Source: a virus (lineage: Duplodnaviria; Heunggongvirae; Uroviricota; Caudoviricetes). From it: a DNA stretch of 35,703 nucleotides. Below, piece by piece: positions 284 through 30,249 of this stretch (positions within the stretch are counted from its first letter, which is position 1; each line of letters starts with the position of its first letter). The stretch lies in the IMG/VR virus record IMGVR_UViG_2547132279_000002; one strand, 5' to 3'. The notes under the pieces were generated by a model, which did not search any database, was not told the origin of the DNA, and saw only the letters and a program-made list of their open reading frames with translations. Position numbers and translations under genes: made by a program.

Positions 284-2841
284 CGTCCACCTCCGGAGAA
301 CAGACCACCATCACGCATCTGCCCGGTCACAACATCCATTGCCGCCTTACGGGCTACGTCATAAACAGCCTTCAGCGCCTGTGGCCCTATCTGACCGTTC
401 GTGCCGTCGTTGTTAATCACCACATGGTTATTCTGCTCAAACGTCCCGGACGCCTGCGACCGACTGTCCGCCATGCTGCCCGGTGTACCGACATAACCGC
501 CGGTGGCATAGCCGCGCATCAGCCGATAAAGATTCCCCACGCCAATCCGGCTGGTTGCCTCCTTCGTGAAGACAAATTCACCACGGTGAACAATCCCCGC
601 TGGCTCATATTTGCCGCCGGTTCCCGTAAATCCTCCGGTTGCAAAATGGAATTTCGCCGCAGCGGCCTGAATGGCTGTACCGCCTGACGCGGATGCGCCG
701 CCACCAACAGCCCCGCCAATGGCGCTGCCGATACTCCCGACAATCCCCACCATTGCCTGCTTAAGCAGAATTTCTGTCATCATGGACAGCACGGAACGGG
801 TGAAGCTGCGCCAGTTCTGCTCACTGCCGGTCAGCATCGCCGCCATATTCTGTGCAATACCATCAAAGGTCTGCGTGGCTGCACTTTTTACCTGCGACAT
901 ACTGTCCGTGGCGCTCTCTTCCCACTCACTCCAGCCGGACTTCAGGCCTGCCATCCAGTTCCCGCGAAGCTGGTCTTCAGCCGCCCAGGTCTTTTTCTGC
1001 TCTGACATGATGTTATTCAGCGCCAGCGGATTATCGCCATACTGTTCCTTCAGGCGCTGTTCCGTGGCTTCCCGTTCTGCCTGCCGGTCAGTCAGCCCCC
1101 GGCTTTTCGCATCAATGGCGGCCCGTTTTGCCCGTTGCTGCTGTGCGAATTTATCCGCCTGCTGCGCCAGCGCGTTCAGGCGCTCCTGATACGTAACCTT
1201 GTCGCCAAGTGCAGCCAGCTGGCGTTTGTACTCCAGCGTCTCATCTTTATGCGCCAGCAGGGATTTCTCCTGTGCAGACAGCTGGCGACGTTGCGCCGCC
1301 TCCTCCAGTACCGCGAACTGACTCTCCGCCTTCCACAAATCCCGGCGCTGCTGGCTGATTTTCTCATTTGCTCCGGCATGCTTCTCCAGCGTCCGGAGTT
1401 CTGCCTGAAGCGTCAGCAGGGCAGCATGAGCACTGTCTTCCTGACGATCGCCCGCAGACACCTTCACGCCGGACTGTTTCGGCTTTTTCAGCGTCGCTTC
1501 ATAATCCTTTTTCGCCGCCGCCATCAGCGTGTTGTAATCCGCCTGCAGGATTTTCCCGTCTTTCAGTGCCTTGTTCAGTTCTTCCTGACGGGCGGTATAT
1601 TTCTCCAGCGGCGTCTGCAGCCGTTCGTAAGCCTTCTGCGCCTCTTCGGTATATTTCAGCCGTGACGCTTCGGTATCGCTCTGCTGCTGCGCATTTTTGT
1701 CCTGTTGAGTCTGCTGCTCAGCCTTCTTTCGGGCGGCTTCAAGCGCAAGACGGGCCTTTTCACGATCATCCCAGTAACGCGCCCGCGCTTCATCGTTAAC
1801 AAAATAATCATCCTTGCGCAGATTCCAGATGTCGTCTGCTTTCTTAAACGCAGCCTCTGCCTTAATCAGCATCTCCTGCGCGGTATCAGGACGACCAATA
1901 TCCAGCACCGCATCCCACATGGATTTGAATGCCCGCGCTGTCCTGTCTGCCCAGGTCTCCAGCGTGCCCATGTTCTCTTTCAGGCGGCGGGTCTGGTCAT
2001 CAAACCCTTTCGTTGCGGCTTCGTTCGCCGCCTGCAATGCCCCGGCTTCATCGCCGGAACGCTGCAACTGAGCAACATACGCAATCTGCTCCGCCGTCAC
2101 GTTATGGAACTGGCGCGCCATCGCTGTCAGCCCTGACGTCGGGTCTGTGGTCAGCTTCCCGAAGGCTTCAGCGACCTTGTCCACCTCCACGCCGGATGCA
2201 GAGGAGAAACGCGCCACACTCTGGCTGATGGACGCAATCTGAGCCTCACCGCTTACCCCCGCCTTAACCAGTGCGCTGAGTGACTCGCTGGTCTGGTTAA
2301 ACGTCAGCCCTGCCGCCTGCCCGGCTCTGGACAGGACCAGCATACGATCTGCCGTCAGACCCGACTGATGACCGGAAAGGACCAGCGTTTTGTTGAAATC
2401 GGACAGGGTTGAGTTGCCCTGATACCAGGCATACGCCAGCGCACCGGTCGCTACCGCCAGCGAGGTGGCCCCCACCATCGGCAGGGTGAACGCACCGGCA
2501 AGCCCCCTGAACATGGGGATCATCCCGCCGAAGGAGTCCTTAACCTGACCACCCTGTTGCAGCAGGATCAGCCACGGACTTTGCCCGCCTGCAAGCTGCG
2601 TGGCCACGTCGGTGAACTGTGCAGGCAGCATACGCATGGCGGCTTTGTACTGCCCGACGGAAATCCCCGCTTTCTGTGCAGCCAGCGCCTGTCGGCTCAG
2701 CGACTGTTCAACGACTGCCGCTGTTTTTTTCGCATCACTTTCCGTACCGGAAAAATGACGCCTGACTCTGGCCATCTGCTCGTCAAATCTGGCCGCATCC
2801 AGACTCAAATCAACGACCAGATCGCCTACCGGTTCAGCCAT
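280..2841 (-). CDS. H: tail tape measure protein
   Basis: 853-aa ORF starting MAEPVGDLVVDLSLDAARFDEQ, near-identical to remembered lambda gpH; same length as lambda H. Confidence 0.95.
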   Translation of the reverse strand: MAEPVGDLVVDLSLDAARFDEQMARVRRHFSGTESDAKKTAAVVEQSLSRQALAAQKAGISVGQYKAAMRMLPAQFTDVATQLAGGQSPWLILLQQGGQVKDSFGGMIPMFRGLAGAFTLPMVGATSLAVATGALAYAWYQGNSTLSDFNKTLVLSGHQSGLTADRMLVLSRAGQAAGLTFNQTSESLSALVKAGVSGEAQIASISQSVARFSSASGVEVDKVAEAFGKLTTDPTSGLTAMARQFHNVTAEQIAYVAQLQRSGDEAGALQAANEAATKGFDDQTRRLKENMGTLETWADRTARAFKSMWDAVLDIGRPDTAQEMLIKAEAAFKKADDIWNLRKDDYFVNDEARARYWDDREKARLALEAARKKAEQQTQQDKNAQQQSDTEASRLKYTEEAQKAYERLQTPLEKYTARQEELNKALKDGKILQADYNTLMAAAKKDYEATLKKPKQSGVKVSAGDRQEDSAHAALLTLQAELRTLEKHAGANEKISQQRRDLWKAESQFAVLEEAAQRRQLSAQEKSLLAHKDETLEYKRQLAALGDKVTYQERLNALAQQADKFAQQQRAKRAAIDAKSRGLTDRQAEREATEQRLKEQYGDNPLALNNIMSEQKKTWAAEDQLRGNWMAGLKSGWSEWEESATDSMSQVKSAATQTFDGIAQNMAAMLTGSEQNWRSFTRSVLSMMTEILLKQAMVGIVGSIGSAIGGAVGGGASASGGTAIQAAAAKFHFATGGFTGTGGKYEPAGIVHRGEFVFTKEATSRIGVGNLYRLMRGYATGGYVGTPGSMADSRSQASGTFEQNNHVVINNDGTNGQIGPQALKAVYDVARKAAMDVVTGQMRDGGLFSGGGR

Positions 2842-3274
2842 ACCGGACTCCTCCTGCGATCCCTTCTGATACTGTCATCAGCATTACGTCATCCTCCGTC
2901 ATGTCCGCCACATCCGGGGAAGCGGGGATAACTTCATTCCCGTCCGGGCCAAAGCGGACACCTCCGGCAAGCCCTGCCGCTTTCTGCATCAGCACATCAT
3001 CTTCAGGCTCTTCGTCAGCCTCGCGCCGGTTCAGCAGACTGAAATCCAGCGGATGCATATCCGGATCGCTGAAAAACAGGCTGAGCACGGTGTACGTCAG
3101 CCCGGAAAAGTGCATATCCAGCAGAACATCATGAAAATAATGGGTACTGTAAAAGCGGTGCCAGTCGGCATACTCCGTGGATGACATCCCGGCAAGCATG
3201 GCACGCCAGTCGGGTCGCCCCATCTCACGCGCCAGTTTCAGGGCAAAACTCAGCTCACCGTCGAACACTTTCCC
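2834..3274 (-). CDS. T: tail assembly chaperone T segment, expressed only as G-T fusion by -1 frameshift
   Basis: 144-aa ORF in the -1 frame relative to G, overlapping the G 3' end; slippery heptamer present at 3268..3274. Confidence 0.8.
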   Translation of the reverse strand, partial: GKVFDGELSFALKLAREMGRPDWRAMLAGMSSTEYADWHRFYSTHYFHDVLLDMHFSGLTYTVLSLFFSDPDMHPLDFSLLNRREADEEPEDDVLMQKAAGLAGGVRFGPDGNEVIPASPDVADMTEDDVMLMTVSEGIAGGVRYG

Positions 3275-3672
3275 GCAGAAACAGGCTCTGCAGGCCCGGC
3301 GTCCTCTGTCTGTTCAGGGGCATTATTCACAACAAACTCATACATACCAGACAGCCGGTACACCACGTTTTCAGCATGAGAAATTGCCTCCGTGGGCCAG
3401 GTGGTAAGCACTTCCTGCTCAATCTGTTTAACGGCTTCATTCATAGACGGCATCTGCGTCTTCTGCGGATGGTTATGCCACAGGGACATCGCCACCAGAA
3501 ACGCGCCGGTTCTGATGGCGTCTTCCACAGTAAACTTCCGGTTGCTGTCTGACTCCGCCTGTTCTGCCTGCCGTTTCATCAGGGCGAGATGCTCAATACG
3601 CTGCAGGGCTGACAGTTCAGAAAGCGTGACGGTCACACCGTTATGTTCAAATGATTCGGTTTTCAGGAACAT
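3250..3672 (-). CDS. G: tail assembly chaperone G
   Basis: 140-aa ORF MFLKTESFEHNGVTVTLSELSALQRIEHL..., matches remembered lambda gpG. Confidence 0.9.
   Translation of the reverse strand: MFLKTESFEHNGVTVTLSELSALQRIEHLALMKRQAEQAESDSNRKFTVEDAIRTGAFLVAMSLWHNHPQKTQMPSMNEAVKQIEQEVLTTWPTEAISHAENVVYRLSGMYEFVVNNAPEQTEDAGPAEPVSAGKCSTVS
3268..3274 (-). promoter_or_regulatory. programmed -1 ribosomal frameshift slippery site GGGAAAG (G to G-T)
   Basis: Plus strand reads ctttccc, i.e. GGGAAAG on the coding strand, in the G/T overlap, as in lambda. Confidence 0.75.
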
Positions 3673-3687
3673 CGCTGACTCTCCGGA

Positions 3688-4428
3688 TTAACTGGCGGTG
3701 ACGTTGATTTCTGCAACCGCAGCAAGTTCACCATTACCGGATACGACCGGAATGTTGACCTTGCCTGCAGCAACACCTTTCACGGTGATGGTCATACCAC
3801 TGACCGACACGGTGGCTTTTGTTTTATCCGCTGACACCGCACGGAAGCTCTTGTCGGTTGCGCCTTCCGGCTGGAATGCCACGGTCAGCGTGGTGCTCTT
3901 CCCTTTCACTACGGAAGCGCTGGCTGGCGTCACGGTCATACCGGTTGCCGCTGTTACCGTGCTGCGATCTTCTGCCATCGACGGACGTCCCACATTGGTG
4001 ACTTTCACCGTGCGGGTGATCACTTCCTTCGCCGTCACCGCCTTACCGATACTGCTGACCCAGCCGCGGAACACATCGACCGTGCCGTTCGGGAAGCGGA
4101 TTTTATAGGCACGGGTATCACCTTCATTAAACCACGCCAGCAGCGCCTGCTGCCCCTGCTCTCCGGGCATCCACGCCAGCGTGAAGCTGGTATCTCCGGC
4201 AGATTTCTGCCCCTGTCCGGTCGCGGTCCAGTCCGCATCTTCATCATCGAGATAACTGTCGTCATAGGACTCAGCGGTCAGTTCGCCGGGCGTCAGGTCT
4301 TTAACCTTTGCCAGACGCGACCAGTCATTGTCTGAAAGCGGGTTTGCATAAGGGTCGCCGCTCCCGTTATAAACCCACAGTGTGGTCCCGGCCCCTTTCA
4401 CCGGTGCCAGAGGATTTGGTGTTGGCAT
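3688..4428 (-). CDS. V: major tail protein V
   Basis: ORF contains [33 protein letters not shown]..., matching lambda gpV; start placed at the internal Met (cat at 4426..4428) giving 246 aa like lambda V. Confidence 0.9.
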
Positions 4429-4435
4429 ATCGTCC

Positions 4436-4831
4436 TCACATTTCATAGGTAATGACATAAGTCAGATCGGCTGAACTCCACAGGCCCGCATCATCGTCGC
4501 GCCGGTAGTCATAGCCACTGGCCACCATACTGGTGATCAAATCTGACAGTGCCGGGATATCGCTCATCACCGGATAAATCCGGGACTCCATCCACGAATC
4601 CAGCTCTGAATCCGGCACCTGAGCAGGCAGGAAAACTTCAATATGCAGCTCCGCCTGCCAGGTATCGCTGTCCAGCTCTTCGCCCGTGTATTCAGCGCCG
4701 GTGAGATAAACGGCAATTGCCGGAAAATCTTCCTCATCAAAAACAGCGGGGCGACCATCAAAAAGCGTCGCCCCGGTGTCATGCTTCTCCAGTGCATCCA
4801 GTACGGCTGCACGGAGTTCAGTATGTTTCAT
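4436..4831 (-). CDS. U: tail terminator protein U
   Basis: 131-aa [48 protein letters not shown]..., matches lambda gpU. Confidence 0.9.
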
Positions 4832-5406
4832 CGCTTTATTACCATTCTCAGTTGATGCTGCAGCGCATAGCCCAGCTCTTTCGGAAGACGCTCACGCCGT
4901 ATCCGCTCAATATTCTGTTTAAACGCCGTGGTCAGCGGCACCGCCATCGGGATTTTCACCACATCAATGGGGTAACGGTTTTTCCCGGCCACACGCTGCA
5001 TGACATGCCACCGGCCATTTTTCAGTTGCTGAATAAACGCGCCGGGAATACGACGGTTTCCCACCACAAGCACGCTGCCGCCACCTTTCAGGGATGAACG
5101 CTGCCCCTTTTTACGACGCCTGCGGCGGGACAGGACAACCCGCGCATTACCCAGCCTGATTACGGGCAAATCCCCCCGGTTAACCCTGATTCTGGCCTGC
5201 GGATTTTTGACCGTGGCCCTTTTCAGCCTGGCCCTTTCCTTTACCAGTTTCCGGCGTACCTTTGTCTCACGGGCAACCTGTGACGCAGACTGCGATATCG
5301 CGGATGACGCAACGCGGTTAATGGCCATTGCGGCGGCACCAGGCACCGCCGTTTTGCTGATACGGCTGAGGTTTTCAACGGCCTGCTCAAGACCTTTTAT
5401 GGCCAT
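4828..5406 (-). CDS. Z: tail completion protein Z
   Basis: 192-aa ORF MAIKGLEQAVENLSRISKTAVPGAAAMAINRVASS..., matches lambda gpZ. Confidence 0.9.
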   Translation of the reverse strand: MAIKGLEQAVENLSRISKTAVPGAAAMAINRVASSAISQSASQVARETKVRRKLVKERARLKRATVKNPQARIRVNRGDLPVIRLGNARVVLSRRRRRKKGQRSSLKGGGSVLVVGNRRIPGAFIQQLKNGRWHVMQRVAGKNRYPIDVVKIPMAVPLTTAFKQNIERIRRERLPKELGYALQHQLRMVIKR

Positions 5407-5417
5407 ACATCCCCCTT

Positions 5418-5771
5418 TCAGCGGCGACGGTTAACGGCAGGCGGCACGCCACGCCCAAGCCAGAGATGACAGCTTCCGCCATCATCCGGCGAAACCCGGT
5501 CTATCCAGAAGTTTTCCTCACCGATGGTCAGCGTGTCTCCACGCCGCAGCTGCCGCACCTCATCAGTCCGGACAAACAGGGACGGGCTGGAGCCTTCAAC
5601 GCGCACGCCCTGTCCGGCATAGCTGATATTTTCAGGGTCATCAAAAACACCACGTATCACAGCACCGGACTGCTCACCGGATGTCATGGTGGCTGACGTT
5701 CCCATGTACCCGCGTATCGTTTCATCAGCGCGGGCAATGGCAGCATCGAACAGGTTATCGAAATCAGCCAC
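5418..5771 (-). CDS. FII: head-tail connector protein FII
   Basis: 117-aa ORF MADFDNLFDAAIARADETIRGYMGTSAT..., matches lambda gpFII. Confidence 0.9.
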   Translation of the reverse strand: MADFDNLFDAAIARADETIRGYMGTSATMTSGEQSGAVIRGVFDDPENISYAGQGVRVEGSSPSLFVRTDEVRQLRRGDTLTIGEENFWIDRVSPDDGGSCHLWLGRGVPPAVNRRR

Positions 5772-5782
5772 AGCGCCTCCCG

Positions 5783-6181
5783 TTATTGCATTCTGGCCAG
5801 GCCACGTTCTGTCATTTCGGCTGCCACACCGGCAGAGACACGAAACGCCGTTCCCGGCAGCACAAATGCCACAGGTTTATCCCGCGTGGCGTGAAGTGCA
5901 TCAGTATGCAGCGTCACCAGTGCCACGACCGTGACCAGTTCAGCCGTATCCTGAATCACGGTATCCGGCTGCGCTGATATCACCTCATTTTCATGCCCGG
6001 TCAGCACATTTTCCCGGCTGAGAGGGGTGTCCTGACCGGCAGTTTCATCCGTGTCATCAAGCTCTTCTTCCAGCTCTGCCACACGAAGCGCCAGTTCTTC
6101 TTTCGTTCCCGTCAAACTGATATCGCGGTTCAGTTGCTCACCCAGCTCCTGAAGACGGGCAATCAGTTCATCTTTCGTCAT
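5783..6181 (-). CDS. FI: DNA packaging protein FI
   Basis: ORF contains MTKDELIARLQELGEQLNRDISLTGTKEELALRVAELEEELDDTDETAGQ..., like lambda gpFI; start set at the internal ATG preceded by GGAGG. Confidence 0.85.
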   Translation of the reverse strand: MTKDELIARLQELGEQLNRDISLTGTKEELALRVAELEEELDDTDETAGQDTPLSRENVLTGHENEVISAQPDTVIQDTAELVTVVALVTLHTDALHATRDKPVAFVLPGTAFRVSAGVAAEMTERGLARMQ

Positions 6182-6204
6182 GAACTCCTCCACAGAGAGA
6201 AAAT

Positions 6205-6218
6205 GGCCCCGAAGGGCC
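6205..6218 (-). other. perfect GC-rich hairpin (ggccc-cgaa-gggcc) in the E-FI intercistronic gap
   Basis: Seen directly: inverted repeat ggccc / gggcc with a 4-nt loop between the E stop and the FI ribosome binding site. Confidence 0.5.
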
Positions 6219-6222
6219 ATGA

Positions 6223-7248
6223 TTACGCCAGTTGAACGGACACGAACTCATCAGGATCAGCCAGCAGCATCAGCGGTGCTGACTGAATCATGGTGAACTC
6301 ACGCGCCGGATCGCCGGTGGTCACCCAGTTTTTCGGGTAACGGGCAGAGGCGTTAATGCCTTCGCGCTGTGCGTCCGCATCCTGAATGCAGCCATAGGTG
6401 CGCAGACCGCGAGCCTGAGTGTTCCCCAGCACCATCGTGTTGTCCGGCAGGAAGTTCTTTTTGACGCCGTTTTCCACGTACTGTCCGGAATACACGACGA
6501 TGGCCACATCGCCATACATTCCCTTATAGGACACCGCTTTGCCCAGGTCTTTTACCGCTGTCTCCAGCTCGGAATGAGAGCCGCGACGGGTATCCAGCTT
6601 CTCCTTGACGGCTTTGAAGGAACGGAACAGCGCCCAGCCTTTCGGGTCAAACACGATGATATTCACCACACCGCTGGCGTTCAGCGCGTAGGCTTCGATA
6701 TCGTCGGTCGGGTCATACGTGGACTTGTCACGCTTGCTCCACTCCGTGCCGCCGGACTGCGTGATGTTATTCGCCGCACTGCGGCCCATATCCACCTCAA
6801 CCGGATCGAAGGCTTCACCGGTCATGGTGTATTTGCCCTTAAGCACGGCAGAAACTGCCTGCATCTCTTCGACCTGGGCAATCGCCAGATTTTCATCCAG
6901 CATATTCTGCCGAATAATACGGCGACGACGGTAAGCCGGGTCCGCCAGATTCTGCGGATCTTCATCCGGCAGGCGACGCAGGGTCATCTGCGGATTCACC
7001 TCATGCTTGGGTTTGACATATCCCGGCGTAAATTCAGAGGTGGAGCCGCCACGGGAACGGATAACCTCACCGGAAACAATCGGCGAAACGTACAGCGCCA
7101 TGTTTACCAGTCCCGGAATTTGTGAGAGATAGACTTTCTCCGTGGTGAAAGGATAGGTTTCACGGAAAAACAGGCGCAGAAACAGCGGATCGAACTTAAA
7201 GTGATGCTGGGTCGATGCCAGTAATTCTGCAGTTGTATATACAGACAT
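6223..7248 (-). CDS. E: major capsid protein E
   Basis: 341-aa ORF MSVYTTAELLASTQHHFKFDPLFLRLFFRETYPFTTEKVYLSQIPGLVNMALYVSP..., matches lambda gpE. Confidence 0.95.
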   Translation of the reverse strand: MSVYTTAELLASTQHHFKFDPLFLRLFFRETYPFTTEKVYLSQIPGLVNMALYVSPIVSGEVIRSRGGSTSEFTPGYVKPKHEVNPQMTLRRLPDEDPQNLADPAYRRRRIIRQNMLDENLAIAQVEEMQAVSAVLKGKYTMTGEAFDPVEVDMGRSAANNITQSGGTEWSKRDKSTYDPTDDIEAYALNASGVVNIIVFDPKGWALFRSFKAVKEKLDTRRGSHSELETAVKDLGKAVSYKGMYGDVAIVVYSGQYVENGVKKNFLPDNTMVLGNTQARGLRTYGCIQDADAQREGINASARYPKNWVTTGDPAREFTMIQSAPLMLLADPDEFVSVQLA

Positions 7249-7261
7249 AAATTATTTCCAT

Positions 7262-7282
7262 AAAAAAAGCCGCACAGGCGGC
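7262..7282 (-). terminator. hairpin plus U-tract between D and E (terminator or attenuator-like)
   Basis: Minus strand reads GCCGCCTGTGCGGC followed by TTTTTTT, located after the D stop and before the E start. Confidence 0.45.
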
Positions 7283-7303
7283 CTTTGTTGATGAAGGGGA
7301 AGA

Positions 7304-7636
7304 TTAAACGATGCTGATTGCCGTTCCGGCAAACGCGGTCCGTTTTTTAGTCTCGTCGCTGGCAGCCTCCGGCCAGAGCACATCCTCATAACGGAACGAG
7401 CCGGACTTGTAGAACGTCAGTGTGGTGCTGGTCTGGTCAGCAGCAACCGCCAGAATGCCAACGGCTGCACCGTCGGTGGTGCCATCCCACACAACCAGCT
7501 TACGGGTAGTGCCATCCAGCATCAGCGGGGTCATTGCAGGCGTTTTCGCACTCAATCCGCCAGGCGCAATTGCTGTATGAGCCGGATCACTGTTACCCAG
7601 CGGCTGGTAATGGTTAAACTCTTCTTTTGTCGCCAT
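7304..7636 (-). CDS. D: head decoration protein D
   Basis: 110-aa ORF ...[32 protein letters not shown]...[11 protein letters not shown], matches lambda gpD. Confidence 0.95.
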
Positions 7637-7645
7637 AACTGCCTC

Positions 7646-8053
7646 TTATACCGGTAAAGCTTCAGGTGTATTAAGTAATTCTTTATTGGTATCAGATGCC
7701 AGGTTACCTGCAGCCAGCGGTGCCGGTGTACCCTGCATCAGACGATCCAGCGCAGTGTCACTGCGCGCCTGTGCACTCTGTGGTGCTGCAGCCAGAATGC
7801 GGCGGGCCGTTTCCACGGTCATTCCGGGGGTTTCTGCCAGAACGCGCGCCTGTTCTTCGCGTCCGTGAGCCTCCTCACAGTTGAGGATCCCCATAATGCG
7901 GCTGTTTTCTGCCGCAACCGCAGCGGTGATCTGCGCGTTCACGTCCGGCTGCGCCGCGCTGGCGTTTTCGCCCTCCGTCGCTGGCACCACGTCAGTAACG
8001 TCAGCCTGCGAAGCAGTGGCTGAAACAGTTGTTGATTGAGTCTCTTTGGTCAT
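7646..8053 (-). CDS. Nu3: scaffolding protein Nu3 (in-frame internal start within C)
   Basis: Internal ATG giving MTKETQSTTVSATASQ... to the shared stop; position follows the lambda C/Nu3 nested arrangement. Start placement is inferred. Confidence 0.55.
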   Translation of the reverse strand: MTKETQSTTVSATASQADVTDVVPATEGENASAAQPDVNAQITAAVAAENSRIMGILNCEEAHGREEQARVLAETPGMTVETARRILAAAPQSAQARSDTALDRLMQGTPAPLAAGNLASDTNKELLNTPEALPV

Positions 8054-8957
8054 TCGCCCTCCTGAGAGACGGGATTTACGTGCATCCAGTGCATCACGCA
8101 TAACGGTGATCGCATCGGTGCTGTTGACAAGTTCATCAGCCAGTCCGGCATCAATGGCCTCCTGACCGCTGTACACTGCAGCCTCGGTATCCAGCACAGC
8201 CTGCACGGACAGGCCGGTATATGCCGACACCTTCTGCGCAAACATCCGGCGGGTTGCATCCATCCGGGACTGCAGTGTCTCCCGGACGTCATCCGGAAGA
8301 TGGCTGTAGGGGTTGCCATCCACCTTATGGCTGCCGCTGTAAATCAGCGTGATTTCCACGCCCTGTTTCTCCAGCGCAGCACCGTAATTACTGTGAGCCA
8401 TCATGACGCCGATGGAGCCTGTCCGGGCGGTCTGCGTGACCAGACGCCGGGAGGCGGCGCTGGCAAGCAGCTGACCTGCACTGCAGTTCATGTCGTTGGC
8501 CAGCGCCCATACCGGTTTTATGTCTCGCACACGGGCGATGATGTCAGCACAGTCAAATGCTCCCGCCACCATCCCGCCCGGTGTGTCCATATCGAGCAGA
8601 ATGCCGTCCACCATCGGATCGCTGGCAGCCTGTTGCAGACGGGCGATAATGCCGTTGTAACCGGTCATTCCCGAATACGGCTGCAGCGCCCGCGTCCGGC
8701 TGACCAGCGTACCGGACACCGGCAGCACGGCGATGCCGTTCATGACCTGATAACTGCGGGCCTGTCGTGGTCCGTCATCATCACCGGATAACGCCAGCGC
8801 CGCGGGTGCCTCTCCGGCAGTCAGGCTGTCGCCGGACACCGCATCCGTCAGGCGACTGATCCCAAGCTGGCCTGCAAGCGCACAAAAGAAAACCCGCGCA
8901 TAGGCGGGTTCAAGCATCAGCGGCTCATTAAAAGCCATGCTGGCAATATGCGGGAGA

Positions 8958-8977
<20 letters not shown>
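7646..8977 (-). CDS. C: head maturation protease / scaffold C
   Basis: ORF contains VTAELRNLPHIASMAFNEPLMLEPAYARVFFCALAGQLGIS..., matching lambda gpC; start placed at GTG (8975..8977) preceded by GAGGAGGAGAAGA; the longer ORF in the track is an upstream extension. Confidence 0.85.
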
Positions 8978-12582
<3,605 letters not shown>

Positions 12583-12612
12583 GTAAGCGACTCGTCAGAA
12601 CCGTATTGATAT

Positions 12613-14184
12613 TTACTGAGAGGTCAGATCAACTTTCCAGGGCAACAGATCGCGTACCCGGTTTGCCGGCCAGTCCTGGATATGTTCAATGACGTAACGC
12701 AGCCACTTTTCTGGCTCCACATTGTTCAGACGGCATGTGCCGATCAGCGAGTACAACACCGCCGCATGTTCACCACCGCTGTCGGAACCCGCAAACATCC
12801 AGTTTTTCCGGCCTACGACCACTCCCCGTAAGGCGTTCTCTGCGATGTTGTTGTCGATTTCCACCCAGCCATTACTGCAGTACACGTTCAGTGCATCCCA
12901 CTGTTTCAGCAGGTATGCGAACGCTTTTGCCGTATCTGAGTGACGCGACAGTGTTTTCATCTGTTGCTGTATCCAGTCATACAGTGACTGCATCAGTGGC
13001 GCGGCTCTGGCTTTTCTTGCCGCCAGACGCTGTTCTGCTGAACAGCCCCGGACCTCTGCCTCGATGGCATACAGTTCACCGATACGCTGCAGGGCTTCCG
13101 TGGTGATGTAGGTGGGCGCTTTTGCATGCACATCGTGGATTTTTCTCCGGGCATGAGCCATACACGCGGCTTCCGTTATTCTGCCGGATTCGTATAACGC
13201 CCGGTAACCACCGTAAGCATCGGCCTGAAGCACACCGCTGTAACCGGCCAGGTGATTTTGTGGATGGATACCTTTCCGGTCCGGACTGTACGCGAACCAG
13301 ACCGCCGGGGGCATCTGTGAACCGGCGTTACGGTCATCACGGACGTAGACCCACAGCCGGGCTGTCCGGGTTTTACCGCTGCCCGGCTCCTGGACCGGGA
13401 CGGGGATATCATCAGCATGGACTTTACCGGGCATCAGCACATACTGGCGCAGGACGTCATACAGCGGCTCCAGCAGTTCAGCAACAGCACCTGTCCAGCG
13501 CCCCAGTGTGGCACGGCTCAGCTCCACTCCCTGACGACGGTATATTTCTGACTGGCGGTATAACGGCAGATGGTCTGCATACTTCCCGGTGACGATATGA
13601 GCCAGAAGCCCCGCTCCGGCATAACTGCGTGCAATGGGTTTTGAAGGTACTGGTGCCTGCACGATATGGTCGCACCGGCAACAGGCCAGTTTCGGACGTT
13701 GTGTTTCGATAACCTTAAAAGCGCTGCTGATAAGCTCCAGTTGCTCTGACACATCACACCCCAGAGGACTGAGGTCACCACCACAGGCCGGGCAGCATTC
13801 CTCTTCCGGCCGGATGACCCGGGTTTCACGGGGAAGTGAGGCCGGTAACGGCTTACGGGCTGAAGACTGGCGCAGGGCGGATGGCAGTACCGGGTCATAT
13901 TGCTCACCCAGCGTTTCCGCCATTTCTTCCTGAAGTGCGCTGATTCGCTCCTGGGCTTCCTGTATCTGCCGTTCGGTTTTAGCGCGAAGTTTTTCTGAGC
14001 TTTTACCGAACTGCATGCGCTGCAGTTTCGCAACCAGCGCCTTCAGCCGGTTGATTTCGGAAGCATAAGCCGCCACCCGCTGTGAGAGCAGGCGGTTGTA
14101 TTTCGCCATCTGGCGGATGGTGTCCTGTTGCGTCTGCAACAGTGCCCGCAGGCGGGCATTCTCATGAGCAAGTGAGGTGTCCAT
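12613..14184 (-). CDS. IS66-family transposase (Orf3/TnpC)
   Basis: 523-aa ORF with N-terminal coiled-coil, CxxC...CxxC zinc-finger-like segment and DDE-type core as remembered for IS66 transposases. Confidence 0.85.
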
Positions 14185-14203
14185 ATCCTCACTTTACAAC
14201 GGG

Positions 14204-14551
14204 TTATATGCGGATGCCAGCGCGTTCCGTTCGTTTCGGGTGCTTCCAGTTGATACCTTCAAGAAGCATAGATAACTGAGCCGGAGTAAGGTGCACCTTG
14301 CCGTCACGGGTAACCGGCCAGACGAAGCGGCCCCGCTCCAGGCGTTTGGTGAAGAGGCACAGTCCGTCACTGTCAGCCCACAACACTTTTATCTGGTCAC
14401 CCCGGCGTCCGCGGAAGATGAACAGATGCCCGGAGAACGGGTCATCCTTCAGGACGTTCTGAACTTTTGATGCCAGGCCGTTAAAACCATTTCGCATGTC
14501 GGTGATACCGGCAACCAGCCAGATACGCGAACCGGCAGGGAGAGATATCAT
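14204..14551 (-). CDS. IS66 Orf2 (TnpB accessory protein)
   Basis: 115-aa ORF MISLPAGSRIWLVAGITDMRNGFNGLASKVQNVLKDDPFSGHLFIFRGRRGDQIKVLWADSDGLCLF..., characteristic IS66 Orf2. Confidence 0.85.
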   Translation of the reverse strand: MISLPAGSRIWLVAGITDMRNGFNGLASKVQNVLKDDPFSGHLFIFRGRRGDQIKVLWADSDGLCLFTKRLERGRFVWPVTRDGKVHLTPAQLSMLLEGINWKHPKRTERAGIRI

Positions 14552-15201
14552 TAGTGGCTGCTCCCTTTCATTTCGCGGATAAGTGTCTGTAATAACGCCG
14601 GTGTCAGTTCACCTTTCAGCCTGAGAGTTCCGGCCGGCAGAACCAGCTCACAGCACAGACTGTCGGGCGGTGTATTTATCTGTTCAGGTATCTGCACTGG
14701 TGCCGGGATTTTATTATCCGGCTCCGGAGTTAACGTCACGGGAAGTAGCGATGTTTCATGTTCGCCGGTCGGCTGCAGGCCGCCGTTACGCCAGAGATGC
14801 CGCCAGTTAAAGAGCAGGTTATCGTTGATTCCGTTCTCACGAGCTATTTGTGCGACACAGGCACCGGGTAAAAGAGTTTGCTGAACAAGCCTCCATTTAA
14901 ACTCCGGTGAAAATCGGTTCCGGCGGATTTTCTCTGTTTTCACAGGCTGAGTCACTGTCGGGGCTGAAGGGTATCGCCCCGGGAACAGAGCCCGGGCCAG
15001 TTGCACGCAGGAATATTCTCCGGAAAGAGGCCAGTCAGTGAATACCTGGTGAAATCGCCTCACCAGAGAAAAAATGGCGGTTTTGCTGATACCGGTCTGC
15101 GCAGAAATGCGCGGGTACGACAGTGACTCGTCAAATCTCAGTTGTAGCACACGCAGGATCAATTCCGGATTGTCTGCCAGTACCGCTTTTCGTGCATTCA
15201 T
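14551..15201 (-). CDS. IS66 Orf1 (TnpA accessory protein)
   Basis: 216-aa ORF immediately upstream of and overlapping Orf2 (ATGA), typical IS66 organisation. Confidence 0.75.
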   Translation of the reverse strand: MNARKAVLADNPELILRVLQLRFDESLSYPRISAQTGISKTAIFSLVRRFHQVFTDWPLSGEYSCVQLARALFPGRYPSAPTVTQPVKTEKIRRNRFSPEFKWRLVQQTLLPGACVAQIARENGINDNLLFNWRHLWRNGGLQPTGEHETSLLPVTLTPEPDNKIPAPVQIPEQINTPPDSLCCELVLPAGTLRLKGELTPALLQTLIREMKGSSH

Positions 15202-15286
15202 CTTAAATGTCCCTTTACTGCGAAAATGGACATTAGTATCGGAAACAGGAAAGGGAGGCGAAAGACGGTTTAAATGAGACGGTTAC

Positions 15287-15396
15287 TTAGCATCCGCCCA
15301 TTCAACGGCGGTCTGTGGCTCCGGCCTGAACAGTGAGCGAAGCCCGGCGCGGACAAAATGCCGCAGCCTGTTAACCTGACTGTTCGATATATTCAC
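15287..15396 (-). pseudogene. A: terminase large subunit A, 5' fragment (first ~36 codons, GTG start overlapping Nu1 end)
   Basis: Reverse complement reads VNISNSQVNRLRHFVRAGLRSLFRPEPQTAVEWADA, then is interrupted at the IS66 end; matches lambda gpA N-terminus. Confidence 0.8.
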
Positions 15397-15916
15397 TCAG
15401 CAACCCCGATATCAGTTCATCCAGCGCGGCTGCTTTGTTCATGGCTTTGATGATATCCCGTTTCAGGAAATCAACATGTCGGTTTTCCAGTTCCGGAAAA
15501 CGCCGCTGCACCGACAGGGGGAGCCCGTCGAGAATACTGGCAATTTCACCTGCGATCCGCGACAACACGAAAGTACAGAATGCGGTTTCCACCACTTCAG
15601 CGGAGTCTCTGGCATTCTTCAGTTCCTGTGCGTCGGCCTGCGCACGCGTAAGTCGATGGCGTTCGTACTCAATAGTTCCTGGCTGGAGATCTGCCTCGCT
15701 GGCCTGCCGCAGTTCTTCAACCTCCCGGCGCAGCTTTTCGTTCTCAATTTCAGCATCCCTTTCGGCATACCATTTTATGACGGCGGCAGAGTCATAAAGC
15801 ACCTCATTACCCTTGCCACCGCCTCGCAGAACGGGCATTCCCTGTTCCTGCCAGTTCTGAATGGTACGGATACTCGCACCGAAAATGTCAGCCAGCTGCT
15901 TTTTGTTGACTTCCAT
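15371..15916 (-). CDS. Nu1: terminase small subunit Nu1
   Basis: 181-aa ORF MEVNKKQLADIFGASIRTIQNWQEQGMPVLRGGGKGNEVLYD..., matches lambda gpNu1. Confidence 0.95.
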   Translation of the reverse strand: MEVNKKQLADIFGASIRTIQNWQEQGMPVLRGGGKGNEVLYDSAAVIKWYAERDAEIENEKLRREVEELRQASEADLQPGTIEYERHRLTRAQADAQELKNARDSAEVVETAFCTFVLSRIAGEIASILDGLPLSVQRRFPELENRHVDFLKRDIIKAMNKAAALDELISGLLSEYIEQSG

Positions 15917-16140
15917 TGTTCATTCCACGGACAAAAACAGAGAAAGGAAACGACAGAGGCCAAAAAGCCCGTTTTCAGCACCTGTCGTTTCCTTTCTTTT
16001 CAGGGGGTATTTTAAATAAAAACATTAAGTTACGACGAAGAAGAACGGAAACACCTTAAACCGGAAAATTTTCATAAATAGCGAAAACCCGCGAGGTCGC
16101 CGCCCCGTAACCTGTCGGATCGCCGGAAAGGACCCGCAAA
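15917..16140 (-). other. cos region (cosB, cosN, cosQ side)
   Basis: Reverse complement of 16081..16110 reads ttacGGGGCGGCGACCTcgcgggttttcgc, i.e. the lambda 12-nt cohesive end GGGCGGCGACCT (cosN at 16094..16105) at the expected ~190 bp upstream of Nu1. Confidence 0.85.
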
Positions 16141-16304
16141 ATGATAATAATTATCATCTACATGTCACAACGTGCATCTACGCCATCAAACCACGTCAAA
16201 TAATCAATTATGACGCAGGTATCGTATTAATTGATCTGCATCAACTTAACGTAAAAACAACTTCAGACAATACAAATCAGCGACACTGAATACGGGGCAA
16301 CCTC

Positions 16305-16499
16305 ATGTCAACGAAGAACAAAACCCGCAGAACAACAACCCGCAACATCCGCTTTCCTAACCAAATGATTGAACAAATTAACATCGCTCTTGAGCAAAAA
16401 GGGTCTGGGAATTTCTCAGCCTGGGTCATTGAAGCCTGCCGTCGGAGACTAACGTCAGAAAAGAGAGCATATACATCAATCCAGAGTGATGATGGATGA
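16305..16499 (+). CDS. hypothetical small protein, possible ribbon-helix-helix DNA-binding fold
   Basis: 64-aa ORF; segment RNIRFPNQMIEQINIALEQKGSGNFSAWVIEACRRRL resembles a beta-strand plus two helices of RHH (CopG/Arc-like) proteins; lies in the cos-bor interval. Confidence 0.35.
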   Translation: MSTKNKTRRTTTRNIRFPNQMIEQINIALEQKGSGNFSAWVIEACRRRLTSEKRAYTSIQSDDG

Positions 16500-16861
16500 A
16501 CATCCCGGTTTCTTCCACCATCGCACCGGAAAAGCGACTATGAGGGTAACCCTGCGTCTGTCAGCACAGTAAAACCCGGTGTGCATCGTTTTTGATTATT
16601 CCCGCACACTCACGCAGAAGGAATTCCCCGTCGGGCTACGGTCATGGTTAATGCGGGAATACGGCGACGATACAGCGCAGCTAAAAGGGTAATAGACGGA
16701 TAGACCGGTTTATTTCATTCCACAGGATTCTGAGTGTCCCCAACTTCCTCCAATAGTCTGAGCGTACACCTATATAGTTTTAATTTTCATCAATCCATTT
16801 AACTATCGTTTAATTGTTGTCACATAGGATTCTGCCGTTTTTAACAATGCAGGATAATAAG

Positions 16862-17155
16862 ATGAAAAAAATGTTGTTTTCTGCCGCTCTGGCAATGCTT
16901 ATTACAGGATGTGCTCAACAGACGTTTACTGTTGGAAACAAACCGACAGCAGTAACACCAAAGGAAACCATCACCCATCACTTCTTCGTTTCGGGAATTG
17001 GACAGGAGAAAACTGTTGATGCAGCCAAAATTTGTGGCGGCGCAGAAAATGTTGTTAAAACAGAAACCCAGCAAACATTCGTAAATGGATTGCTCGGTTT
17101 TATTACTTTAGGCATTTATACTCCGCTGGAAGCGCGTGTGTATTGCTCACAATAA
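16862..17155 (+). CDS. bor: Bor lipoprotein (serum resistance, lysogenic conversion)
   Basis: MKKMLFSAALAMLITGCAQQTFTVGNKPTAVTPKETITHHFFVSGIGQEK..., matches lambda Bor; lipobox LITGC; start set at internal ATG 16862. Confidence 0.9.
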   Translation: MKKMLFSAALAMLITGCAQQTFTVGNKPTAVTPKETITHHFFVSGIGQEKTVDAAKICGGAENVVKTETQQTFVNGLLGFITLGIYTPLEARVYCSQ

Positions 17156-17166
17156 TTGCATGAGTT

Positions 17167-17182
17167 GCCCATCGATATGGGC
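17167..17182. terminator. palindromic hairpin between convergent bor and Rz
   Basis: Perfect palindrome gcccatcgatatgggc between the bor stop (17155) and Rz stop (17187). Confidence 0.4.
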
Positions 17183-17186
17183 AGCT

Positions 17187-17648
17187 CTATCTGCACTGCT
17201 CATTAATATACTTCTGGGTTCCTTCCAGTTGTTTTTGCATAGTGATCAGCCTCTCTCTGAGGGTGAAATAATCCCGTTCAGCGGTGTCTGCCAGTCGGGG
17301 GGAGGCTGCATTATCCACGCCGGAGGCGGTGGTGGCTTCACGCACTGACTGACAGACTGCTTTGATGTGCAACCGACGACGACCAGCGGCAACATCATCA
17401 CGCAGAGCATCATTTTCAGCTTTCGCATCAGCTAACTCCTTCGTGTATTTTGCATCGAGCGCAGCAACATCACGCTGACGCATCTGCATGTCAGTAATTG
17501 CCGCGTTCGCCAGCTTCAGTTCTCTGGCATTTTTGTCGCGCTGGGCTTTGTAGGTAATGGCGTTATCACGGTAATGATTAACAGCCCATGACAGGCCGAC
17601 GATGATGCAGATAACCAGAGCGGAGATAATCGCGGTTACTCTGTTCAT
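17187..17648 (-). CDS. Rz: spanin inner membrane subunit Rz
   Basis: ORF contains [51 protein letters not shown]..., matches lambda Rz; start ATG overlaps the endolysin stop. Confidence 0.9.
17246..17428 (-). CDS. Rz1: spanin outer membrane lipoprotein Rz1 (embedded in Rz, +1 frame)
   Basis: 60-aa [50 protein letters not shown]..., matches lambda Rz1; lipobox VVGC. Confidence 0.85.
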
Positions 17649-18142
17649 TGCTGACCCCACAAACAGATTTCACGCTCAATCTCACGACGAGTCATGAGAC
17701 CTTTCCATTGCTTACCGCCAGCATATGTCCAGCGACGTAGCTGATCACATGCGCCTTTGATATCGCCCTGGTTTATTTTGCGAAGAAGCGTCGATGTTCT
17801 GAAATTGCCAGCACCCACGTTGTAAACGAATGAGTAAAGAGCGCCGCGCGTTGTTTCCGGTATATCGACTTCGATGTACGGGTTAATTTGTCTGGCGACA
17901 GTGGCAAGGTCTTTATTCAAGAGTGCTTTGCATTCTGCTTTGGTATACGTTTTACCGAGCATGATGTCTTTTCCTGTATGCCCGTGACATACAGTCCATA
18001 CACCAACAATATCTTTGTATGGTATGTAGCTGACACCTTCCAGACCATCGTTACCACTTGGGCCAGTGATTAACACTGATGCTATAGCAATTGCTCCGCC
18101 ACCAATAGCAGCAGCAACGGCTTTTCGTAATGATGGAGGCAT
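17645..18142 (-). CDS. R: SAR endolysin (phage 21 R21-type lysozyme)
   Basis: 165-aa [47 protein letters not shown]..., with N-terminal Gly/Ala-rich signal-anchor-release segment and T4-lysozyme-like core; matches remembered phage 21 / DLP12 RrrD endolysin. Confidence 0.9.
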
Positions 18143-18357
18143 TATTCACCTCTCGCAGCCTTGCGCTTATCTTCTTTAATCTTGAAATAAAGGTTTGTCA
18201 GGTACGTCAGCAGGCCAAATACCAGGCTACCCAGCACACCTATTGCTGCCCACTGTGAGGGCGTGACTTTATCGAGCAGCTGTAAAAACCAGTAACCGGC
18301 ACTACCTGCTGAGGTGCCATAGGCGACACCCGTTGTTAACTTATCCATGGATTTCAT
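18142..18357 (-). CDS. S: pinholin (phage 21 S21-type)
   Basis: 71-aa [74 protein letters not shown], matches S21 / DLP12 EssD. Confidence 0.9.
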
Positions 18358-18465
18358 AACCCCACCTCGCAGACAAAGCGGGTGTAAATTGAGGGAATAC
18401 TACGAAACGTAACAGACTCGGAGTCAGTGAATAACTCAGGTATTGGGTTATCAGCTAATATCGAG

Positions 18466-18499
18466 ACTCAAAAAATGGAAAAACCCGCTCGACGGCGGG
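18466..18499 (-). terminator. rho-independent terminator upstream of S (candidate late-operon tR'-like terminator)
   Basis: Minus strand: stem cccgc / gcggg with 6-nt loop followed by TTTTTCCATTTTTT; about 120 nt upstream of the S start. Confidence 0.5.
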
Positions 18500-18929
18500 T
18501 TTAAGCTGTGTGACGAAGTAACCACTCTTAACAGCATAACCAATTTTTTACGTACGTAAACCACTAAATGATATTTGCGAGAATGCTACCGAGTATTGAA
18601 AACACCACTACAAATACATAAGCAAATCTCAACAAATAACCAACAAATAATTTCCAGTGTTATTTTTAGCCGATTTAAATTGAACCTTCAAATCATAGAG
18701 CACTTATAAATAACAACCGTTAATATAAATTGGCTAATAGATTTATTTTTATTCAGCCAAGAGCCATGAATAGGATTCGATAGAAAAAAGTTCAGATAAA
18801 AATAGAGATCTACTTCACAAATCAAACGAGAAACCAAAACTTACATCTTGAAATAATCATATTGATTAGATGAATATTTATCGCGCAGTGACATCATTTT
18901 TTAATAATAGTTCAAAAAAAGGGCTCACG

Positions 18930-20027
18930 ATGAAAAAATTAACAGTGGCAATTTCTGCTGTAGCTGCATCAGTACTGATGGCGATGTCTGCTCAGGCAGC
19001 TGAAATTTATAATAAAGACAGTAACAAGCTGGATCTGTACGGGAAAGTTAATGCTAAGCACTACTTCTCCTCTAATGATGCAGATGATGGTGATACTACT
19101 TATGCCCGTCTTGGCTTCAAAGGTGAAACCCAAATCAACGATCAACTGACTGGTTTCGGTCAGTGGGAATATGAATTCAAAGGCAACCGCGCTGAATCTC
19201 AAGGTTCCTCCAAAGATAAAACCCGTCTTGCCTTCGCTGGCCTGAAATTCGGTGACTACGGCTCCATCGATTACGGCCGTAACTACGGTGTAGCATACGA
19301 CATCGGTGCGTGGACTGACGTTCTGCCAGAATTCGGTGGCGATACCTGGACCCAAACAGATGTGTTCATGACTGGTCGCACCACTGGTGTTGCAACCTAT
19401 CGTAACAACGACTTCTTTGGCCTGGTTGATGGTCTGAACTTTGCTGCTCAGTACCAAGGCAAAAACGATCGTAGCGATTTCGATAACTACACCGAAGGTA
19501 ACGGTGATGGCTTCGGTTTCTCTGCTACCTATGAATACGAAGGATTCGGTATCGGTGCAACTTATGCGAAATCTGATCGTACCGACACTCAAGTTAATGC
19601 AGGGAAAGTTCTTCCTGAAGTATTTGCTTCCGGTAAAAATGCAGAAGTTTGGGCCGCAGGTCTGAAATATGACGCTAACAACATTTACCTGGCCACTACC
19701 TATTCTGAAACCCAGAATATGACTGTATTTGCTGATCACTTCGTTGCTAATAAAGCTCAAAACTTCGAAGCTGTTGCACAATATCAGTTCGATTTCGGTC
19801 TGCGTCCGTCCGTTGCTTACCTGCAATCTAAAGGTAAGGATCTTGGAGTATGGGGCGATCAGGACTTAGTCAAATATGTTGATGTAGGTGCCACCTATTA
19901 CTTCAACAAAAATATGTCAACTTTCGTTGATTACAAAATCAACCTGCTTGACAAAAATGACTTCACTAAAGCACTCGGTGTAAGCACTGATGACATCGTT
20001 GCTGTAGGTCTGGTTTACCAGTTCTAA
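18930..20027 (+). CDS. outer membrane porin (OmpC/NmpC/Lc family), prophage moron
   Basis: [47 protein letters not shown]...; signal peptide, general porin motifs and C-terminal aromatic residue (ends YQF); located between Q and S in opposite orientation like nmpC in DLP12. Confidence 0.9.
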
Positions 20028-20164
20028 TCTGATTACGAAAAAGATATGTTGCGGGAGGCTTTGCCTCCCCAACATATAAGTGGCTCCCTCAAGCCACTTC
20101 CTTTAGGAGCACAACCTTGCTTCTAACTATATAAACCTTCTGTTATATATTACCCTTTATTTTT

Positions 20165-20190
20165 GGGGGCGTCTCAACGCCCCATTTTTA
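20165..20190 (+). terminator. rho-independent terminator downstream of porin gene
   Basis: Stem ggggcg / cgcccc with 6-nt loop followed by ATTTTTAATAATTTTT. Confidence 0.55.
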
Positions 20191-20216
20191 ATAATTTTTA
20201 GTAAACAATTGGCATA

Positions 20217-20600
20217 TTAATTAGAGTTATTAACAACGATATCCATCTCTAACCGGATATCTAATGCCATTAACATCCCTTCAATTATGCCCTCAGCCTT
20301 CTGTAACCTTTTCCCGATATAACCATCAGAGCAGCAATGCTTACCTGCCAGTGACATGAATGTCATACCGACTACATAATAATCTACTAATAAATCGTGC
20401 AAATCGCTGTTGTTCTTTTTCAGACGGGCCATGCACCCGCAAATAATCATCGCGTCATCGTCACAACATTGCGGGCGAGATTTTACTTTTGAAGTAATTA
20501 ATCCCTTAAAACCGGCGGCAATGGACGACCAGGTCACATCTTCATGATTATTAGCCGCCCACGCTCCCCAACGCTCAAGAACCATCTGAATATCACGCAT
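20217..20600 (-). CDS. Q: late gene antiterminator Q (DLP12 QuuD-like)
   Basis: ORF contains [35 protein letters not shown]...[20 protein letters not shown]..., matching remembered QuuD; start set at the internal Met. Confidence 0.8.
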
Positions 20601-20685
20601 CAACTTACTCCACAAAAATCAGACCAGAACGCCAATTACAAGCAAAAATCAACAAAACAGTATTAGTTGATTGTTATCTCTGACT

Positions 20686-20823
20686 TCATACTCCTGCTCC
20701 TGTCAGTGTTTTGGCGTAATTCTTCAGTATTCGGTAATCGGTCAAAACAGAACCGGGGAAACGATATAAGCGCAGGCGCACCCAGCGGCGGCGAAGACGC
20801 TCTGCCATATAAGACTCAAACAT
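20686..20823 (-). CDS. ylcG: small protein YlcG-like
   Basis: 45-codon [48 protein letters not shown] whose ATG overlaps the rusA stop; resembles DLP12 YlcG. Below the ORF-track length cut-off, found by hand translation. Confidence 0.5.
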   Translation of the reverse strand: MFESYMAERLRRRWVRLRLYRFPGSVLTDYRILKNYAKTLTGAGV

Positions 20824-21185
20824 CATTCATCTCCCAGTTCGGTGATGGTCAGTTCCAGCCTCCCACCTTTGGTAACAGGCATCTTCACAACGCGGTAATC
20901 AACGACCTGAGCATCATCCAGCCAGAAACCTGCTTTAGTGAGTGCGTCAAAAGCGGCTTTTTGCAGATTATCCAGGTCACGGCGACGGCGATCCGGCATG
21001 TGGCACTCAATGCGGATTTTCACAGGCATAGCCAGGCCGATATCCAGCATTGCGTTTTTAATGATTCGGGCGACGTTATCGCGGTATGCCTGCCCTTCTG
21101 CGCTGATGTGCGTGCGCCCGCGATTATGCCGGTAGTAGCGGTTATTGCTCGGAGGCCAGGGTAATGTGATGCTGTAGGTATTCAC
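20823..21185 (-). CDS. rusA: Holliday junction resolvase RusA
   Basis: 120-aa [50 protein letters not shown]...[34 protein letters not shown], matches RusA. Confidence 0.9.
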
Positions 21186-21472
21186 GCCTTAATAACCCCC
21201 TCTTTCAGCCAGATAACCTGTGTTCTCGCCATACCTTCCAGCGCGCATTCTTTTGCATATGCAGCATCGACAAAATGTGTGCGGCGGTCGATTTCGTCGT
21301 GGCAGGCAGAACATGCAATGGTGGCAATCAGGTCTGGCGGTTTGATACCGGTACCGCACAATCCAGCCAGCCGGATATGTGCCAGTACAGACGTTTCAGG
21401 GTTGCCATTACATACGCCAGGGATTCTTACCTGGCATTCCCGACCACGCGCTGCTTTTCTCAAATCAGCCAT
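21182..21472 (-). CDS. YbcO-like protein (DUF1364 family)
   Basis: ORF contains [64 protein letters not shown]..., cysteine/histidine-rich, as DLP12 YbcO; start set at the internal Met. Confidence 0.7.
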
Positions 21473-21635
21473 GACTCCTCCTTGCTGCCAGTCGCAACCA
21501 TTTTTTATCAACCAAGCTGGCGGTATATCCGAGCAGTGTTGGTATTTCGGAAGGCTTCAGCTCAGGTTTACGCTTACGACGATTTGGTACTCTGTAAATG
21601 TGCCCGTTCATGACACGAATAAGCGGTGTAGCCAT
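21465..21635 (-). CDS. ninE: NinE-like small protein
   Basis: Hand-translated 56-aa [59 protein letters not shown], basic, in the ninE position between ninB and ybcO; start overlaps the ninB stop. Confidence 0.5.
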   Translation of the reverse strand: MATPLIRVMNGHIYRVPNRRKRKPELKPSEIPTLLGYTASLVDKKWLRLAARRSHG

Positions 21636-22090
21636 TACTCCTCCTGCTTGTCGCGCAGCAGCTGGAACTCGCAGCTCTGCGGAATAGTCAGGTGGCAGCC
21701 AATATTCATCGCCCAGGCTTCAACCTTACACAGGAAGACATACATCTCTCCGGTATCAAGATCGGAGGTATGGCGTAACGACTGGATAGTAGTGATTTCG
21801 CCGGTTACGACATCAACCAAGTCCTTGGTTTCATAACCGAGGTATGTGTGTTTGAGTGCATCTTTTACCCATACTGCAGTAGCGAACGTTTTCCCCCTGC
21901 TGATGAGGTACTCGCTGATTTCGCTGTACCACATGTGGCTGAGTGCATTCTGGGAAAGACTGCGTCTCTCGCGCCACGGTTTAAGCACCATGCGAAAGCA
22001 TTTTCCGTCCTCCAGATAAGGCTGGATCTGCTGACCGATAGTGGTGAAGTTACCGCGATGTAATTTGATGCCGTCTTGTGGGAGGTTCAC
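21635..22090 (-). CDS. ninB: NinB / YbcN-like recombination protein
   Basis: 151-aa ORF; segment [24 protein letters not shown] resembles the lambda NinB motif RNRSLDQNRKLWACLGDVSRQV; position matches the nin region. Confidence 0.7.
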
Positions 22091-24399: not shown

Positions 24400-24408
24400 G
24401 TAAAAAAA

Positions 24409-27595: not shown

Positions 27596-27681
27596 AATTC
27601 CTCCCGCAATGAGTGCGTTACGATTTGCGCCTGAAAGTCGGCTCTGTTCCCGCAGACCGGCTTTCGCCATTTCTGAGCCTG

Positions 27682-28221: not shown

Positions 28222-28290
28222 AATTGACTCCTTTAGTTTGAATTGACTGTTAAGTTGATTGCTTATTGTTAAAGAGCGTGAAATGGAAAT

Positions 28291-29315: not shown

Positions 29316-29381
29316 TCAGTACTGTGCTGATGAGTCGTTTAGGGGATAGTAAATTTAATTAGAATTAGACGAGAGCGATTT

Positions 29382-30245: not shown

Positions 30246-30249
30246 TTTC

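Follow-up and report, generated by a model that had tools for sequence, protein, structure and literature searches.

A complete IS66-family insertion sequence splits the terminase gene A of a lambdoid prophage

The prophage DNA analysed here (35,703 bp, hereafter the window) carries a lambda-type terminase gene A in two pieces, raising the question of how the gene was split and what the split means for packaging. The initial annotation, made from the letters alone, had read gene A as matching lambda gpA for about 36 codons, giving way to an IS66-type element of about 2.7 kb and resuming at 12582, with the same 8 bp at both junctions. We consider a simple insertion that split A, with the loss of a functional terminase, to be the best explanation overall (probability about 0.97).

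Boundaries and identity of the inserted element

The 8-bp direct repeat TTAGCATC was found at 12575-12582 and at 15287-15294, and a script that searched both strands of the window detected no further copy. The chance of a given 8-mer recurring exactly at the opposite end of an IS is 1/65,536. The 2,704 bp between the two copies represent the element, on the minus strand. Direct reading of 12400-15500 gave ...GATAGTAA TTAGCATC and then the element start GTAAGCGACTCG... at the left junction, and the element end ...GAGACGGTTAC, then TTAGCATC CGCCCATTC..., at the right junction.

12575-12582: target-site duplication, copy 1, TTAGCATC (GATGCTAA on the gene strand; gpA codons 34-36)
12583-15286, minus strand: complete IS66-family insertion sequence, 2,704 bp, IS679-like in length and end structure
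12583-12607: terminal inverted repeat at the tnpC-distal end, GTAAGCGACTCGTCAGAACCGTATT
12613-14184, minus strand: tnpC, 523-aa DDE transposase (NF033517, 480 bits; four Pfam domains)
14204-14551, minus strand: tnpB, 115-aa IS66 Orf2-like accessory protein (TnpB_IS66 in Pfam, 136 bits; NF033819)
14551-15201, minus strand: tnpA, 216-aa helix-turn-helix accessory protein (HTH_Tnp_1 in Pfam; NF038385, 285 bits)
15262-15286: terminal inverted repeat at the tnpA-proximal end, reverse complement GTAACCGTCTCATTTAAACCGTCTT
15287-15294: target-site duplication, copy 2, TTAGCATC

The two ends of the element, the right one reverse-complemented, are identical at 18 of 25 positions and form imperfect 25-bp terminal inverted repeats starting with GTAAGCG and GTAACCG. 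The termini were corroborated by copies elsewhere, similarity to which ceases at the identical bases; other copies are flanked by 8-bp duplications of their own, GTTTATGG in strain 90-9280 and GTTCATTC in MSI001. Re-inspection of the repeat and the full-length Pfam and NCBIfam matches of TnpA, TnpB and TnpC agree with the initial annotation of an IS66-type element flanked by the same 8 bp.

The three co-directional ORFs of the element (216, 115 and 523 aa) are tnpA, tnpB and tnpC, all full length; the tnpB ATG overlaps the tnpA stop codon (ATGA), and tnpC begins 20 nt past the tnpB stop. TnpC matched DDE_Tnp_IS66 (PF03050) with 347.6 bits over profile positions 1-283 of 284, and additionally LZ_Tnp_IS66, zf-IS66 and DDE_Tnp_IS66_C (PF13007, PF13005 and PF13817). 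The NCBIfam equivalog models NF038385, NF033819 and NF033517 all scored far over their cut-offs. Ends of the IS66 family are imperfect inverted repeats of about 20-30 bp with a 5'-GTAAGCG or GTAACCG start. The tnpABC gene order, a DDE-type TnpC with leucine-zipper and zinc-finger regions, the imperfect inverted repeats and the 8-bp target duplication all place the element in this family.

Over its full 2,704 bp, the element is 99.8-99.9% identical to IS66-family copies on ETEC chromosomes and plasmids. NCBI labels the 99.9%-identical copies only as "IS66 family transposase", and an exact-sequence cluster look-up returned generic "IS66 family" names only; the ISCro1 family label is given to copies that are 96-97% identical and have a longer tnpA. 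The copy in the window is apparently functional, judging by its ORFs, its ends, the perfect duplication and the 99.9% identity to copies elsewhere.

The split gene A and packaging

The gpA frame starts with GTG at 15396 and runs for 36 codons, reading VNISNSQVNRLRHFVRAGLRSLFRPEPQTAVEWADA, followed by AAG TAA at the IS end; the interrupted gene product is 36 gpA residues plus lysine. The stop after residue 37 lies inside the IS end, leaving gene A a pseudogene. The 604 codons that follow lack a start before Met61, and the first in-frame ATG of the 3' fragment is this codon 61 (12504), opening a 581-aa ORF (10759-12504) that keeps most of the GpA_ATPase domain and the entire GpA_nuclease domain (Pfam).

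15283-15396, minus strand: gene A 5' fragment, GTG start, 36 gpA codons, then Lys and TAA from the repeat and IS end
10759-12582, minus strand: gene A 3' fragment, codons 35-641 counting the repeated bases
15371-15916, minus strand: intact Nu1, the 181-aa small subunit of terminase, with 100% identity to nohD of strain 90-9280
16081-16105, minus strand: cosN, matching the cohesive-end site of lambda exactly over 25 nt

In silico deletion of the IS and one repeat copy restored an uninterrupted ORF of 641 codons reading ...VEWADANYYLPKESAY... across the join. A tblastn search with the intact gpA of 90-9280 mapped residues 1-36 to 15396-15289 and residues 35-641 to 12582-10762, with 100% identity in each case, in agreement with the initial reading of where A breaks off and resumes. 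The 1,000-nt empty site is present as a single ungapped piece at 100% identity in three complete ETEC genomes (90-9280, ETEC-2264 and LR882978), and is 99.6-99.7% identical to lambda, HK629/HK630 and DE3, so the clean join that the initial annotation had expected after removal of the IS and one repeat was obtained. Both domains, the restored 641-codon ORF, the overlap with Nu1 and the adjacent cosN identify the gene as a lambda-type gpA gene.

The 581-aa fragment was tried as a probe for the same insertion elsewhere and was rejected as unspecific: the matching contigs L007 and L008 hold an uninterrupted A. In L008 the gene is intact and its start was simply called at Met61. L007 (Logan SRR31139686 contig 150) has at about 1990-1995 a nonsense codon near codon 47 (…KESAY*EGRW…) in an otherwise intact A, which is an independent route to losing gene A.

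A single simple transposition placed a complete IS66-family element into the 8-bp target GATGCTAA in codons 34-36 of A, within the lambdoid prophage that an ETEC-like E. coli carries at argU (the DLP12 site). The TnpC DDE transposase would have cleaved the target with a stagger, and repair would have left the 8-bp duplication. Translation of A now ends after 36 native residues and one lysine, and a Met61-started product would be without the N-terminal segment for gpNu1 binding and a contribution to ATP binding. Genetics from the Feiss laboratory reportedly assigned gpNu1 binding to the extreme N-terminus of gpA.

Q-antiterminated late transcription may continue across the IS, which has the same direction, and reach W-B-C. 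Searching the window for Rfam families and tRNAs detected no RNA genes, and a promoter/terminator scan of the region found sites no more numerous than in shuffled sequence.

The gpA protein is the ATPase/endonuclease subunit of terminase, responsible for translocation and cos cutting, and is essential for packaging (PMC4856287, PMC2366019). Since this subunit is essential, the prophage is predicted to encode no functional terminase and to have lost cos cutting and the packaging of its own DNA. The initial annotation had stated that the prophage cannot package DNA; with A split, this stands for its own terminase, but packaging could be rescued by gpA from a second lambda-type prophage, because terminase works in trans and both Nu1 and cosN have stayed intact. 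In 90-9280, two places matched the Nu1-A query. The head and tail genes, described initially as intact, are full length from W to H by comparison with the 90-9280 proteins, while the contig ends before genes M, L, K, I, J and the tail fibres.

The prophage, its relatives and competing explanations

The window, which makes up all of contig AELC01000040.1 (assembly GCA_000166575.2), is colinear with the lambdoid prophage of strain 90-9280 (NZ_CP024240.1) beside tRNA-Arg/fimZ, the DLP12 site. The region 15287-35007 is 99.975% identical between the two, with an A-run indel and adjacent substitution at 23039-23040, two single-base homopolymer indels and one more substitution as the differences. The left arm (1-12582) is 98.4% identical, with a single mismatch within 7000-12582. 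The Nu1, W, B, C, D, G and T proteins and the reconstituted A are 100% identical to their 90-9280 counterparts, and E, FI, FII, Z, U, V and H are full length against them. The differences are clustered in H, V and FII-FI-E (1-1000, 3500-4500 and 5500-7000), the rest of the left arm being near-identical, a pattern that indicates mosaic recombination with another lambdoid phage.

The IS copy of 90-9280 (locus L003, 39598-42301) has the duplication GTTTATGG and lies about 2.1 kb beyond the left end of the window contig. In the relatives, this copy, located between I and J, is about 15 kb from the A site in the same prophage and the same orientation. The insertion into A appears to be recent, since its repeats are perfect, its flanks are 100% identical to the uninterrupted relatives and the IS is only 2 nt different from the I-J copy. 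The I-J copy of 90-9280, if also present in the source strain, is a possible nearby donor.

The integrase gene of the window is interrupted as well.

35134-35703, plus strand: end of an IS100 that interrupts the integrase gene (int ORF 34611-35153; junction at 35134/35135) and extends as far as the contig does

The IS100 insertion is a second disabling lesion of the prophage, which was probably locked in and decaying anyway given the int interruption. The int gene of 90-9280 is also interrupted by IS100; the two insertions are 133 bp apart and in opposite orientations, which indicates independent hits or an IS-mediated rearrangement.

Several accessory genes accompany these lesions. Between replication gene P and ybcN, an AAA/ABC-type ATPase (23035-24399, plus strand) is followed by an HNH-like protein (24634-25601, plus strand). 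The two proteins match components A and B of the PADLOC candidate system PDC-M62 (E about 1e-33 for each), with weaker matches to Septu PtuA/PtuB, and are probably a prophage-borne anti-phage defence pair. A-run indels relative to 90-9280 at 23039, 24550 and 24721 shift or shorten the 5' ends of both genes: in the HNH-like gene there is a frameshift near codon 30, and the ATPase gene is affected at its start. These indels may be sequencing errors in one of the assemblies or real phase-type changes. A 287-aa protein with DUF7946 and DUF7947 (29382-30245, plus strand) adjoins the S24-peptidase repressor, which is the position of lambda rexAB, and had only a weak PADLOC match (PDC-S42, E 1.5e-4). 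The iss/bor gene for a serum-survival lipoprotein (16862-17152, plus strand) and a gene for a 365-aa porin (18930-20024, plus strand) are on the strand opposite to the late operon and are 100% identical to their 90-9280 counterparts; both are possible reasons for keeping a defective prophage.

Two explanations would deny that the two fragments of A were parted by one insertion. A multi-copy IS could have been wrongly placed by the assembler between pieces of an intact A; the contig is a draft that ends inside the repeat IS100, and the element is multi-copy in related genomes. A misjoin would not, however, yield a perfect 8-bp duplication of A precisely at the true termini of the element, and the same gene neighbourhood recurs on another contig, longer than 1 Mb, so we regard an artefact as highly improbable. 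It is equally improbable that two IS copies recombined, by inversion, deletion or the movement of a composite transposon, and so brought together fragments of A originally non-adjacent. The second IS copy of the relatives, some 15 kb off and co-oriented, makes such an event conceivable, but it would leave non-matching 8-mers at the flanks, whereas the repeats here are identical, the rejoined flanks are 100% identical to the intact relatives and the synteny is unbroken on both sides. The matching duplications and the perfect reconstruction of the empty site effectively refute recombination between IS copies.

The third explanation concerns the order of the lesions: the insertion is real but neutral, having struck a prophage already cryptic through the int interruption and possibly through lesions off the contig. 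The IS100 insertions in the integrase gene, which differ in position between this prophage and that of the closest relative, agree with this, as do the nonsense codon in A of L007 and the IS66-family insertions in or just upstream of Nu1 in other genomes, typical of prophage erosion. An int defect blocks excision but not cos cutting and packaging in situ, so that A is still needed for any packaging. The odds for neutrality appear to us evenly balanced; it is compatible with a simple insertion into A and alters only the order of the lesions.

Distribution of the insertion and comparison with known systems

The exact IS-A junction was found in none of the 5,426 complete RefSeq E. coli genomes, and 20 genomes that seemed to cover the query of the IS plus its flanks carry the IS66-family element elsewhere. 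One further record, longer than 1 Mb and probably from the same or a sibling strain, has both the exact TnpC protein and the 581-aa A fragment amid the same neighbouring genes. IS66-family insertions are present in the packaging module of other E. coli genomes (L001 4132-6835, L005 2632-5326 and L004 2174-4459). In MSI001 and 09-00049 the element is located 1 nt upstream of the Nu1 ATG; their left junctions are identical, and the duplication GTTCATTC was found in MSI001. CFSAN018748 has an IS66-family insertion within the 3' part of Nu1, and O25 strains have an element about 1.5 kb upstream of Nu1.

These insertions raise the idea that IS66-family elements repeatedly strike the cos-Nu1-A region of lambda-like prophages, by target preference or by host-level selection against packaging, which we consider unlikely. 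Of roughly 3,400 genomes that contain a lambda-like Nu1-A, about 20 show an IS66-like copy no more than about 2.4 kb away, against about 7-13 expected by chance, a rough expectation from 5-Mb genomes and a median of 2 query-matching places per genome (the query includes the IS). Since this many are expected by chance and clonal inheritance inflates the observed count, the enrichment is not convincing and the hot-spot was rejected. The selection variant could imply that packaging is knocked out while useful cargo (iss/bor, the porin and the Septu-like defence pair) is kept. All neighbouring IS66 insertions found in other genomes are oriented with the late operon, and this orientation bias was likewise rejected, because the similarity search joined only same-strand pieces and insertions of the opposite orientation could not score as full-coverage places. 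The tnpABC genes of the window are co-directional with the Q-antiterminated late operon, and, as part of the same unlikely reading, prophage induction could drive a transposase burst.

Gene A of this prophage is better annotated as one IS-split pseudogene than by the public call of a 581-aa terminase, and the prophage is to be scored as defective, without its own terminase and with its integrase interrupted. The insertion is a strain-specific marker usable for typing within the ETEC lineage. It is a classic case of pseudogenisation by an IS in a prophage undergoing erosion, a known element, common in E. coli, acting by a known mechanism with a known consequence, and adds no new biology on IS66 elements or lambda packaging.

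Compared with known systems, the element resembles IS679 of the IS66 family, from plasmid pB171 of EPEC B171. IS679 was reportedly described by Han et al. in 2001 as 2,704 bp long with imperfect 25-bp inverted repeats and an 8-bp duplication. The element in A shares the length, the 25-bp imperfect inverted repeats starting with GTAA(G/C)CG, the tnpA-tnpB-tnpC order with the tnpA/tnpB overlap and the 8-bp target duplication of that description, and is putatively IS679-like by its length, end architecture and duplication size.

The reconstituted A is like lambda gpA in its 641 codons, its GTG start overlapping the end of Nu1 and its GpA_ATPase and GpA_nuclease domains. The 1,000 nt around the site are 99.6% identical to lambda J02459, and the cosN-Nu1-A-W-B synteny is common to both; unlike lambda gene A, the gene here is broken by the IS after codon 36. 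The prophage that occupies the argU/DLP12 site in ETEC O114:H49 strain 90-9280, in ETEC-2264 and in LR882978 is the same as that of the window. The 90-9280 copy shares the accessory genes (iss/bor, the porin, the Septu-like pair and the DUF7946 protein) and the same IS family, but its A is intact, and its IS, with 2 mismatches, is located in the I-J intergenic spacer, where no ORF is disrupted.
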